Positions 54,929 through 57,655 of a stretch of DNA of 64,000 nucleotides are shown here, piece by piece. The stretch is taken from positions 61,901 through 125,900 of the IMG/VR virus record IMGVR_UViG_3300021255_000062; one strand, 5' to 3'. The notes beneath the pieces were generated by a model. It did not search any database. It saw nothing but the letters and a program-made list of their open reading frames with translations, and was not told the origin of the DNA. The first letter of the stretch is position 1. Every line of letters begins with the position of its first letter. This DNA is from a virus. Taxonomy: Duplodnaviria; Caudoviricetes. A program made the translations under genes and the position numbers.

Positions 54929-55001
54929 TAGTCCCTAGGAGAATCGAACTCCTGTTTTAGAACTGAAAATCCTATGTCCTAGGCCACTAGACGAAGGGAC
55001 C
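54929..55001 (-). tRNA. tRNA-Glu(UUC)
   Basis: Canonical cloverleaf. Confidence 0.9.
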
Positions 55002-55151
55002 CGATCGAACAATAGAGGCAGTGTTTAAGTATATTCAGTCGCGCGTACTTCGGGGTTAATTAAGCCAAAGACCCGTTTCATGGCACCTCTATTATTCTAT
55101 TGCTCAATTCTCCATCCGTCGATAGAGAATCTTTCGGCTCGTCAGCCAAAA

Positions 55152-55224
55152 CTCCCCGAGTAGGACTTGAACCTACGACAGCGCGGTTAACAGCCGCGTG
55201 CTCTACCGACTGAGCTATCGAGGA
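55152..55224 (-). tRNA. tRNA-Asn(GUU)
   Basis: Canonical cloverleaf. Confidence 0.93.
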
Positions 55225-55235
55225 ATAACATAAAA

Positions 55236-55310
55236 TTGCAGAGGTGGGATTCGAACCCACGTCATTCGGCTTATGAGGCCGAGCTGGTACCATCTCCAGT
55301 CCACTCTGCG
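55236..55310 (-). tRNA. tRNA-Met(CAU), initiator-like
   Basis: CAT anticodon, C1xA72 mismatch. Confidence 0.85.
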
Positions 55311-55454
55311 CTACATAAAATGCCTTTCGCACTAAGAATTTTAGGACGCATCCTTACTTTTCACACTACCGCAGTAGCTGTCTTTCATGGGCGCTCCGAA
55401 AAGTTCCACGGGCACGGATTGGGGTAACAGGATATTGATATCTTTTACTCCATA

Positions 55455-56039
55455 TTATTTTATCTTTATTAATTTTTTATTATCTAAATCTAATTTATAA
55501 TAACCAAGAGTAATTTTTCTGTGGCAGGTAGGACATAGAATAGACAAATTAGATAAATCATTATTATTTCTATCACTATCTATATGATGAACTTCTAATA
55601 TTCTTTCGTCCTCATTCCATCCACAGACTAAACATTCATGCTTTAGAAAATTAAAGGCCCGCAAGCGATAATTAGAAGTAGATTCATTATTTAGACTCCT
55701 TATAATATTTTTATGCTTATTACCACAAGTAGTAGAACAGTAAAAGAAACCACTTTGATTTTTTTCTATTTGATACTTAGAACGATAAATTTCTTTTCCA
55801 CAAAAACTACACTTAAGTTTCTTTCCATTTTTTACCCCACAAGATGGACACCTATGATTTTTTGCCTTATCTGTACTATAAATAAAATTACTAGGTTTCA
55901 TTTCCCATTCATATCCACACTCTAAACATTTTATATTCATTGGGGTACGAATATTTTTATATTCACCAGTAATTTCTACTTGTTGAATAAAATTCTTTTT
56001 TCCTCTTTCTATAACTTCTTCTTTAGTTAATTTTCCCAT
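55455..56039 (-). CDS. HNH homing endonuclease with zinc ribbons
   Basis: Start MGKLTK after AAGGAG; several CxxC; LEVHHID..R.NN...NL.ILCPTCH. Confidence 0.88.
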   Translation of the reverse strand: MGKLTKEEVIERGKKNFIQQVEITGEYKNIRTPMNIKCLECGYEWEMKPSNFIYSTDKAKNHRCPSCGVKNGKKLKCSFCGKEIYRSKYQIEKNQSGFFYCSTTCGNKHKNIIRSLNNESTSNYRLRAFNFLKHECLVCGWNEDERILEVHHIDSDRNNNDLSNLSILCPTCHRKITLGYYKLDLDNKKLIKIK

Positions 56040-56064
56040 AATAAACTCCTTAAATATTTTATAA

Positions 56065-56140
56065 TCGGAGAGGCGCCACTCGAAGGCGCAGTAACGTCCT
56101 GATCCCAAATCAGGCGAGGTGCCTCTTCCCCTACTCCCCG
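56065..56140 (-). tRNA. tRNA-Pro(UGG), divergent replacement copy
   Basis: C1:G72, A73, loop TT-TGG-GA, T arm GCGCC-TTCGAGT-GGCGC. Confidence 0.8.
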
Positions 56141-56364
56141 CCATTAAGTAAAAATTATATCTAAGGAGTTTATTATTTTGATGCGGAAGATAAGTTGGGA
56201 TACATCCCAAATGTAACATTCTAGCCAAACTGAACTACACCCCAATAATTATTTCTTTCTCAACTTTGTATATATATTATACCAATATTTTAAAAAATTT
56301 TCAAATTATTGTTAAGTATTTAAACGTAGAAGGCGCGGGCGCCTTCTACGAAACACCTCAGAAC

Positions 56365-56556
56365 TTATTCATAAATTATTCTTCTTCCACAAGTTGGACA
56401 TATTATCATAACAGTTTCTCGCGGTCGTCTATTTCTAAATAAAATAACACTTTTATCGCAAGAACAATATACTCCATTTTGGTATTCTCCAAATAAAGGT
56501 ACTAAATATGAATAACATTTTATATCTTGTTTTGGAATAATACGAATTTTATCCAT
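56365..56556 (-). CDS. Small zinc-ribbon protein
   Basis: CSC...CPTCG. Confidence 0.5.
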   Translation of the reverse strand: MDKIRIIPKQDIKCYSYLVPLFGEYQNGVYCSCDKSVILFRNRRPRETVMIICPTCGRRIIYE

Positions 56557-56600
56557 TGTTAACTATTGCTCCATATATTAGTTCCTTTTAATGATACTGG

Positions 56601-57140
56601 TTAGAACTGGTTAGAACTGGTTGTATAAGGAGTTGAAGTAACATAAGTACAATAAATTTTATCGCTAGTACAGAAGAATACTCCCACTACATCTCCAAAA
56701 ATGTCTCTTGCAATATTTTCATATAACGTAGAACAATATCCATTATAATCTCCAAGATTATCCGTGAAATACTGCACTACTTCTTTCTTGAACAATACAT
56801 AATGCAAATCATAATTAAATAGTCCAGAAACAGTTTCAATTCTGTCTACAATCGAATTGTTCTTTAAAGCGGCTTGAACAGTAGAATAATTAGATGACTT
56901 AAATCCAAAACTTGCTCCATTTGCTGGGATAATTGTAATTTTTAATCTTACTTCTCCAAACACTTTCTCAACAGGAAACAATTCACTTAAAGCTTTAGCC
57001 TTATCTGAATCGGATACATAAAGTTTAATTTCACTTTTATCATCATCAAACAATACTTTTACGTCTGGGTCGTGTTCAAAAAATGCATTTACCTCTCTGT
57101 AATAAATAATCCAAGGTGGACTTAAATTTACTCTTGCCAT
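56601..57140 (-). CDS. Conserved phage hypothetical protein
   Basis: LSPPW...KKEVVQYF.DNLGD..G..STLYE.IARDIF. Confidence 0.7.
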   Translation of the reverse strand: MARVNLSPPWIIYYREVNAFFEHDPDVKVLFDDDKSEIKLYVSDSDKAKALSELFPVEKVFGEVRLKITIIPANGASFGFKSSNYSTVQAALKNNSIVDRIETVSGLFNYDLHYVLFKKEVVQYFTDNLGDYNGYCSTLYENIARDIFGDVVGVFFCTSDKIYCTYVTSTPYTTSSNQF

Positions 57141-57177
57141 TGATTTTCTCCTATAATTTAGATTGACAAGTTACAAG

Positions 57178-57249
57178 CAGCCCCGGCTGGATTCGAACCA
57201 GCAAATGCAGCAGTCAAAGTGCTGTGTCTTGCCATTTGACGACGGGGCT
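57178..57249 (-). tRNA. tRNA-Gln(UUG)
   Basis: Canonical cloverleaf. Confidence 0.9.
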
Positions 57250-57655
57250 AAAGGCAGCTTATAGCACCATCAGCTGTTATTCCATAGTTTTTCTTTTGGA
57301 TTGCGCCAAAATGACTTTTTTCTTTTCTTGGAAGGTGCATAATCAGTAATCCTCACGAAATTATTTATCCTGTTATTTCGAACAGTTGATAGTTTAGGTT
57401 TACCTCCGCGATGAACTCTACCAAACTGGAGGAAAAACTAGGATACGTCTGCAGCCGCCTAGACTCTTTCTAACGCCGAGCAAGCGGAGAAAATTTTAGT
57501 CACGATTTCTCAACGCCGCATCTACCATCTGCATAGGCCAACCAATCACCTCTGGTTGGTTAGGGTAAGTTTCCTTCGCTGCCAAACTTACAAAGATAGC
57601 TACGTGGTACGCATCAGCTGCATCTTAGTGCTGCTACGAGAGGCGTTGTAGCGAG
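57250..57655 (-). ncRNA. Candidate ~400-nt structured ncRNA between two tRNAs
   Basis: No ORF; consecutive hairpins; GC above background. Confidence 0.55.

Follow-up and report, generated by a model that had tools for sequence, protein, structure and literature searches.

A mobile cassette built around a gene for an HNH endonuclease has very probably split the resident tRNA-Pro(UGG) gene of an uncultured phage, and it brings with it its own tRNA of the same anticodon, which belongs to a distinct lineage and is referred to here as tRNA*. The stretch of DNA analyzed, 64,000 nucleotides in length and called the window below, represents the right half of the genome of an uncultured phage, which has a length of 125.9 kb and terminal repeats, and the DNA of this phage is present in cattle and in other gut metagenomes. 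For comparison, pattern scans of IMG/VR and metagenomes supplied about 40 related phage and metagenome loci. The anatomy of the cassette, its recurrence in these loci, its conservation and the status of its tRNA as the sole copy are direct observations.

The broken tRNA-Pro gene at the start of the tRNA array

All features of the cassette lie on the minus strand, and their position is the start of a 16-gene tRNA array. Read in the minus-strand direction, the features are, in order, a promoter, the 5' remnant of an ordinary tRNA-Pro (the head), a palindrome, a 60-nt AT-rich leader, tRNA*, 25 nt that include the motif AAGGAG, and the HNH ORF. The end of this ORF is followed by 21 nt and then by the last 15 nt of the old tRNA-Pro (the tail), and the distance between head and tail is 767 bp. 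A sequence-only reading of the window had placed the head at 56244-56201, the tail at 55433-55419 and an intact tRNA-Pro together with an HNH gene between them, and all of these were found at their places. The insert of about 770 bp that it described, with an intact tRNA-Pro of the same anticodon and an HNH gene, corresponds to the measured distance, to a tRNA-Pro(tgg) called by ARAGORN and to an ORF matching Pfam PF01844.

About 30 nt upstream of the broken tRNA-Pro, a sigma-70-type promoter is found at 56276..56304 (minus strand; TTGAAA, 17 nt, TG-extended TATAAT) with 11 of 12 consensus matches, from which the original tRNA-Pro, then the leading gene of the array, would have been transcribed. 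Promoters of this style are also present in related phages. A promoter module (TTGA.., 17 nt, TG-TATAATAT, then a AAAGTTGAGA-like leader) is common to the window (56276-56304), L014:3720-3790, L018:5060-5130 and L036, which suggests one broad phage group with a shared early-transcription signal. At the other end of the locus, a GC-richer spacer of 110 nt (55311-55418) separates the tRNA-Pro tail from a tRNA-Met; it gave no Rfam match and folds like its shuffles (z = -0.1). In the relative from run X2 this spacer is missing and a tRNA-Asn stands directly after the tail.

The head (56201..56244, minus strand) covers positions 1-42 of an ordinary tRNA-Pro(UGG), namely the 5' strand of the acceptor stem, the D arm, the anticodon stem and loop with UGG, and four of the five nucleotides of the returning stem strand. 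Within 56040-56260 it was the sole region reported by the Rfam tRNA model, at 18.5 bits, which lies below the threshold. In comparison with the intact tRNA-Pro genes of three other large phages (L016-L018), 35-37 of 44 positions are equal and the D arm is identical. L016 is a 142-kb phage whose intact tRNA-Pro resembles the remnant of the window, and which also encodes a tmRNA; L016:799-1189 and L016:2141-2227 hold this tmRNA and a tRNA-like gene whose anticodon region is oversized and to which ARAGORN could assign no type.

The tail (55419..55433, minus strand) consists of the T-stem 3' strand, the acceptor 3' strand and the discriminator A, and an eroded T loop may extend it to about 55440. 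Its acceptor strand pairs with the acceptor 5' strand of the head at 7/7 positions. The acceptor strand of the head is G-rich, and 46% of shuffles yield such a 7-mer; as stand-alone evidence the pairing was rejected. The T-stem strand of the tail is identical to that of L016/L017, the tail is placed where the tails of relatives are placed, and in a contig from another cattle-gut run the end of the nuclease gene, 85-90% similar, is followed by a full T arm and the same acceptor strand. These three observations identify the window tail as an eroded tRNA 3' end. They also render credible the earlier claim that head and tail are paired pieces of one tRNA-Pro, the acceptor pairing alone being at chance level.

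Across loci, the heads stop at tRNA positions 38-48 (those of the window, L024 and L061 exactly after 42), and the best-preserved tails, which are found in L019, in a 31-nt duplicate in L045/L044 and in the contig of run X2, begin at 45-46 and none of them earlier. Together, these ends place the break where the anticodon stem stops and the variable loop starts. The same spot is the site of three extra bases in tRNA*.

An insert that adjoins the anticodon loop lies at the usual site of tRNA introns, and its first bases pair with the anticodon loop, like the helix of archaeal and eukaryotic anticodon introns (PMC4090602). The 767 bp might on these grounds be an intron or part of a split gene, with head and tail joined as RNA into a second functional tRNA-Pro. 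This explanation is extremely improbable in our judgment, as no group I or group II match was obtained at E ≤ 10 in 55000-57400, which agrees with the sequence-only reading that no intron structure is seen, and a ribozyme core has no room between tRNA*, the ORF and the ends. We found neither a ribozyme core or bulge-helix-bulge nor complete exons. The window pieces are without the variable loop, the T-stem 5' strand and a proper T loop, and their joined product would be unfoldable; the pieces of L020 and L032 are likewise incomplete, and the breakpoints vary between loci. Since the T-stem 5' strand would be missing even if the pieces were joined, and since no ribozyme is present, splicing is excluded. 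The sole ORF between the pieces encodes the HNH protein, and neither a tyrosine or serine recombinase nor direct att repeats, as expected of integrase elements, were found.

The fold-back palindrome that had been described at the 5' junction was located at 56195..56210 (16 nt, minus strand); it is composed of the anticodon loop of the head and the first cassette bases (TCCCAA), is scored as terminator-like, and its right arm is able to pair also with UGGGA in the region of the HNH start. L019, L024, L033, L041, L043, L031, L061 and L026 have homologous palindromes. The element is kept whether the cassette has the order tRNA-HNH or HNH-tRNA, at an HNH identity of about 50%, and in L043 and L031 it remains when the rest of the head is gone. 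Such persistence, the terminator-like score in the window and the resemblance of the I-TevI operator to its homing site (PMC2988022) would be expected if head and palindrome were kept for a function of their own, as attenuator, nuclease operator or decoy anticodon stem-loop, and belonged to the cassette and not to the debris of its target. We hold this to be quite unlikely, because the heads vary by locus in their D arm and acceptor strand and match their own tail, as target debris would, because the cassette of L020 is without a palindrome, and because a T run follows the hairpin only in some loci. For the palindrome taken by itself, a role as operator, attenuator or anti-start element is possible.

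The replacement tRNA-Pro and the HNH nuclease

The tRNA of the cassette, tRNA* (56065..56140, minus strand), was identified by ARAGORN as tRNA-Pro(tgg). It combines a covarying cloverleaf and a UGG anticodon with a normal T loop and with C1-G72 and A73, the bacterial proline identity bases, and is thus classified as a tRNA; CCA is not encoded. Its D loop, AAGAGGCA, is fixed among the aligned copies, and its variable loop of 8 nt is 3 nt longer than the ordinary one. In an alignment of nine distinct copies, all pair cells (189/189) are standard and 12 of the 21 pairs show compensatory change, a cloverleaf pairing that was reached by 0 of 500 shuffles and to which slid registers stay far inferior. 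The Rfam model RF00005 did not report tRNA* even at E ≤ 10, and the gathering score was not reached, which is likely due to the 8-nt variable loop and the odd D loop.

The 125.9-kb genome to which the window belongs has no tRNA-Pro other than tRNA*. Two further (near-)complete genomes with the cassette, of 132 and 115 kb, were available, and in all three (G000, G001 and G002) the cassette tRNA is the sole tRNA-Pro, which speaks for the earlier claim that the element supplies a replacement.

Enlarged variable loops have arisen independently among HNH-linked tRNA-Pro genes, with lengths of 6, 7, 7, 8 and 12 nt and unrelated sequences, compared with 3-6 nt in ordinary genes that are not linked to HNH. 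An ordinary variable loop of 5 nt is present in about half of the linked genes (L031, L032, L045, L046 and L028), and loop length is therefore not the sole determinant of a possible immunity. The embedded tRNA of L032 (L032:1394-1469) combines the odd acceptor stem of the L019 type with an ordinary body and with a variable loop of 5 nt, and judged by this mosaic it looks like the product of gene conversion in which a cassette tRNA-Pro and an ordinary one took part.

The nuclease gene (55455..56039, minus strand) encodes 194 amino acids and matches Pfam PF01844 at 8.2e-8, above the cutoff, and phrog_1271 at 3e-20. Zinc ribbons (CapR-like, DUF7836) occupy the N-terminal part of the protein, and its C-terminal part shows the pattern CxxC...HH...N...CxxCH; the columns CxxC...HH.D...N...CxxCH are invariant in 36 relatives, and the window copy has every invariant residue. 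With its HNH domain of the beta-beta-alpha-metal type, catalytic His and Asn and zinc-binding Cys pairs, the enzyme is of the HNH class. The predicted C-terminal domain could be aligned weakly to the HNH domains of Cap5, Cas9 and the Gme nicking enzyme (best Foldseek E 0.06), and Foldseek gave no alignment of the model at E ≤ 0.001. Sequence and fold searches of the PDB returned generic HNH and zinc-ribbon matches only. More than 200 relatives were recovered in protein searches, among them an identical protein on a 119.5-kb contig, and in GenBank phages no relative was found even at E 1e-5. The families matched were HNH and zinc-ribbon only, with no GIY-YIG domain of the SegB type, and the nuclease resembles SegB-type endonucleases in its way of working and not by membership. 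Its gene is free-standing, with no intron family at E ≤ 10 and with AAGGAG 7 nt before the ATG.

In the window, the nuclease gene has no in-frame stop codon when it is read in the standard code. The gene of L028 (L028:2501-3076) contains three in-frame TGA at invariant Trp positions, with a tRNA(tca) nearby, and in that of L021 (L021:2501-3067) six or seven Gln positions are in-frame TAG codons; a tRNA(cta) is encoded by G002. In L019 (2751-2772) and L032 (2067-2088) the nuclease ORF enters the tRNA tail, and its stop codon lies within the T stem of the remnant.

Recurrence of the cassette in other phages

Among the loci with enough flank, a tRNA-Pro(UGG) stands 15-111 nt upstream of the nuclease gene in seventeen distinct loci and 23-35 nt downstream of it in three; other tRNAs are neighbours only of the most distant nuclease relatives (39-40% identity). 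The order palindrome, leader, tRNA*, Shine-Dalgarno (SD) motif and HNH gene is shared by the window, L019, L022, L024, L032, L033, L041 and L043 at 55-91% HNH identity. L020 shows the same order without the palindrome, and in L026 the same head and palindrome are followed by the HNH gene and then the tRNA. An independent bovine-gut study contains one contig with head, spacer and tRNA*, which differs at 6 positions.

The heads in front of these cassettes belong to ordinary tRNA-Pro genes of differing lineages, and their D arms are of at least five types. The HNH gene of the window, L019, L020 and L032 is followed by a tail that shows 7/7 pairing with the head of its own locus, and in the latter three the tail continues with the discriminator base and CCA. 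Head pieces without a tail are found in L024, L041, L033, L061 and L026. L019 and L032 have HNH proteins that are 77% identical and nearly the same leader, and their head/tail pairs are different. One cassette family between the matched pieces of different targets implies repeated insertion into tRNA-Pro genes. The matching halves of L019, L020 and L032 thus bear out the view of the sequence-only reading, which had proposed a mobile HNH element that split a tRNA-Pro(UGG) and supplies its own.

Variants of the arrangement were also observed. L045 carries a complete ordinary tRNA-Pro, followed after 71 nt by the HNH gene and then by a 31-nt duplicate of the 3' end of the tRNA. Its close relative L044 has the first 24 nt of the tRNA, the HNH gene and the same 3' piece, and a replacement tRNA is absent from this 1.6-kb contig. 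In L022 and L024, another tRNA 5' fragment (acceptor strand and D arm) lies about 10-40 nt past the HNH stop codon, and tRNA debris of several isotypes surrounds the cassettes. A permuted tRNA is present at L014:2690-2810, where the 3' part (GCA anticodon arm, variable loop, T arm and acceptor 3' strand) comes first and is directly followed by the 5' part (acceptor 5' strand and D arm), with perfectly pairing acceptor strands; the order may have arisen by a deletion that spanned a tandem pair, or the gene may be genuinely permuted.

The presence of the nuclease gene is patchy. A scan for the D arm of tRNA* yielded six more IMG/VR records, which represent five distinct phages (L062 and L068 are identical). 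In L061 the head, palindrome, leader and tRNA* are retained and the HNH gene is down to about 22 codons; in the other four phages (L062/L068, L066, L067 and L069) tRNA* occurs without HNH, and L044 and L045 are variants of one locus. L061 and the HNH-free phages fit the cycle of invasion, decay and loss that is expected of a homing endonuclease gene, the tRNA being left behind as an apparently working gene. The four HNH-free phages also allow another interpretation, since tRNA* may be an ordinary phage tRNA lineage and the nuclease merely stands alongside. According to this explanation, tRNA* is the native tRNA-Pro, the HNH gene landed next to it, and head and tail are deletion debris of a redundant second tRNA-Pro, with no rescue and no joint mobility. 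The arrays of phage tRNA genes are indeed full of fragments of other isotypes, and relatives of the HNH gene stand beside ordinary-looking tRNA-Pro genes as well (L045, L046 and L031). However, a covarying leader helix that belongs to the nuclease itself encloses tRNA* in eight cassettes, the pair of tRNA* and HNH recurs between head/tail pairs of different lineages and among differing neighbour tRNAs, and no complete cassette-bearing genome has retained a second tRNA-Pro. A native origin of tRNA* at this locus is accordingly unlikely in our view.

Intact tRNA-Pro genes similar to the head exist in L016-L018; a close relative of the phage with the unbroken gene at this site, the check suggested by the sequence-only reading, was looked for and not found. 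Relatives of the neighbouring 179-aa protein had at most 49% identity and no synteny, no relatives of the 63-aa neighbour protein and no match of a 21-mer from the downstream spacer were found, and the contigs of four gut metagenome runs included none that bridged the insert.

The leader helix, the proposed mechanism and related systems

In the window, 19 nt of the leader (the anti-SD strand, 56157..56175, minus strand) pair across tRNA* with the strand that holds the SD motif (AAGGAG, 56051-56046) and the start codon (56034..56057, minus strand), and TCCCA of the palindrome pairs with UGGGA at the start. The two-strand duplex has an energy of -26.7 kcal/mol, compared with -10.7 ± 2.4 kcal/mol for shuffles. 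The corresponding helices of all eight cassettes reach -21 to -33 kcal/mol, and their shuffles -9 to -13 kcal/mol (sd about 2.5); the seven further cassettes lie about six standard deviations from their own shuffles, with differing sequences. When the eight helices were aligned on the AUG, pairing extended from -16 to +4 in nearly all of them, and each of these positions showed two to four types of base pair. The helix was tested locus by locus; RNAalifold on a MAFFT alignment of whole leaders gave the cloverleaf only, with the flanks out of register. tRNA* thus forms the loop of a covarying helix of 19-29 bp that buries the ribosome binding site (RBS) and the start codon of the nuclease.

To our knowledge, an RBS-burying helix that encloses a tRNA is not a habit of phage homing endonuclease genes, and the location of a tRNA within the translational lock of the nuclease is a new finding of the present analysis. 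Helices that bury the RBS as such are known from I-TevI-III, segB and mobE, and in T4 a late promoter within the helix frees the RBS (PMC2988022). A motif just before tRNA* was considered as a general (late) promoter and rejected, as its frequency in G000, G001 and G002 was not above chance; an internal promoter before tRNA* is unsupported. We therefore favour a putative release or destruction of the message via tRNA processing or RNase III.

From these features we infer a sequence of events in which the ordinary allele is cut, tRNA* is immune, the cassette homes and the helix regulates the nuclease. The cassette has very probably been inserted at about position 42-46 of the original tRNA-Pro(UGG), which reduced the old gene to head and tail and made tRNA* the present source of phage-encoded proline tRNA. 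In a mixed infection, the nuclease would cut ordinary tRNA-Pro genes near the variable loop, and the break would be repaired from the cassette-bearing genome, for which the conserved head and tail of the tRNA may serve as portable homology arms. tRNA* would escape cutting owing to its variable loop that is 3 nt longer, and the helix between leader and SD-start region is expected to hold the synthesis of the nuclease down. For a cut in the old allele and a resistant new one, as the sequence-only reading had proposed, the sole indirect support comes from the clustering of breakpoints at the variable loop and from the repeated independent enlargement of this loop in HNH-linked tRNA-Pro genes. As tRNA* sits in the loop of this helix, we propose that processing of the tRNA and translation of the nuclease are physically coupled.

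A more far-reaching version, which we offer as tentative and rather doubtful, regards the cassette as a naturally occurring cut-and-rescue drive that is directed at an RNA gene and combines immunity through the variable loop, tRNA-gated expression of the nuclease and an operator-like palindrome made from the anticodon loop of the target. Excision of tRNA* by RNase P and RNase Z, or cutting of the helix by RNase III, would then set the amount of nuclease, and immunity would consist in the enlarged variable loop at the place where the nuclease cuts. As its arms are tRNA sequence, the cassette would be movable between unrelated phages, including those that read TAG or TGA as an amino acid.

The cassette is a variation on free-standing homing endonucleases such as SegB of T4 and T6, whose gene likewise lies among phage tRNA genes. 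In phages that lack it, SegB cuts tRNA genes at a T-loop motif, and adjacent tRNA genes are transferred together with it (PMC2330249); its association with tRNA genes in many phages shows no isotype preference (PMC13096335), and segB has an RBS-sequestering hairpin (PMC2988022). SegB is, however, a GIY-YIG enzyme directed at the T-loop motif of many tRNAs and encoded between intact tRNA genes, whereas the enzyme of the cassette is of the HNH class and tied to one isotype, its target lies in two dead pieces, and a tRNA of the same anticodon and of another lineage is placed in the leader of the nuclease. In the genes-in-pieces work on Aeh1, the two products of the split gene reportedly still function together. 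The HNH gene mobE of T4 and Aeh1 and the genes of I-TevI/II/III resemble the cassette in the RBS helix that represses translation (PMC2988022; PMC2790892). In contrast to mobE of Aeh1, the tRNA gene split by the cassette is dead, a replacement is supplied and the repressing helix encloses a whole tRNA.

Integrase-type islands and prophages integrate within tRNA genes and bring along a copy of the 3' end of the tRNA. They share with the cassette a tRNA gene as insertion site and the restoration of function by a sequence of the element, and the 31-nt 3'-end duplicate of L045 is similar; unlike these islands, the cassette has no integrase and, in the window, no att-type identical repeat, and it carries a whole tRNA of a different lineage and not a 3' end. 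With archaeal split and permuted tRNAs and introns the cassette shares pieces parted at or near the anticodon loop and an intervening sequence that pairs with this loop (PMC3218864; PMC4090602). In the archaeal systems, a splicing endonuclease and a ligase join pieces that are complete, whereas the pieces around the cassette are incomplete and without splicing structure. Synthetic cleave-and-rescue drives use a nuclease that destroys a needed resident gene and is linked to an uncuttable recoded copy of it; the cassette differs from them in being natural and viral and in having an RNA gene as its target.

Homing endonucleases usually limit the harm they do by residing in a self-splicing intron or intein, or by sitting beside their target. 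The cassette appears to embody a third solution for a gene that is unable to host a protein-coding insert, which is to break the gene and to bring a substitute. One element crosses between phages of three different genetic codes. If the proposed steps hold true, the cassette would explain the rewriting of phage tRNA sets and the fragment-filled state of their tRNA arrays, and would represent a natural example of the logic of cleave-and-rescue drives. It would also provide a nuclease that is compact, tRNA-specific and matched by a defined resistant allele, and a tRNA in an mRNA leader as a means of coupling RNA processing to translation.
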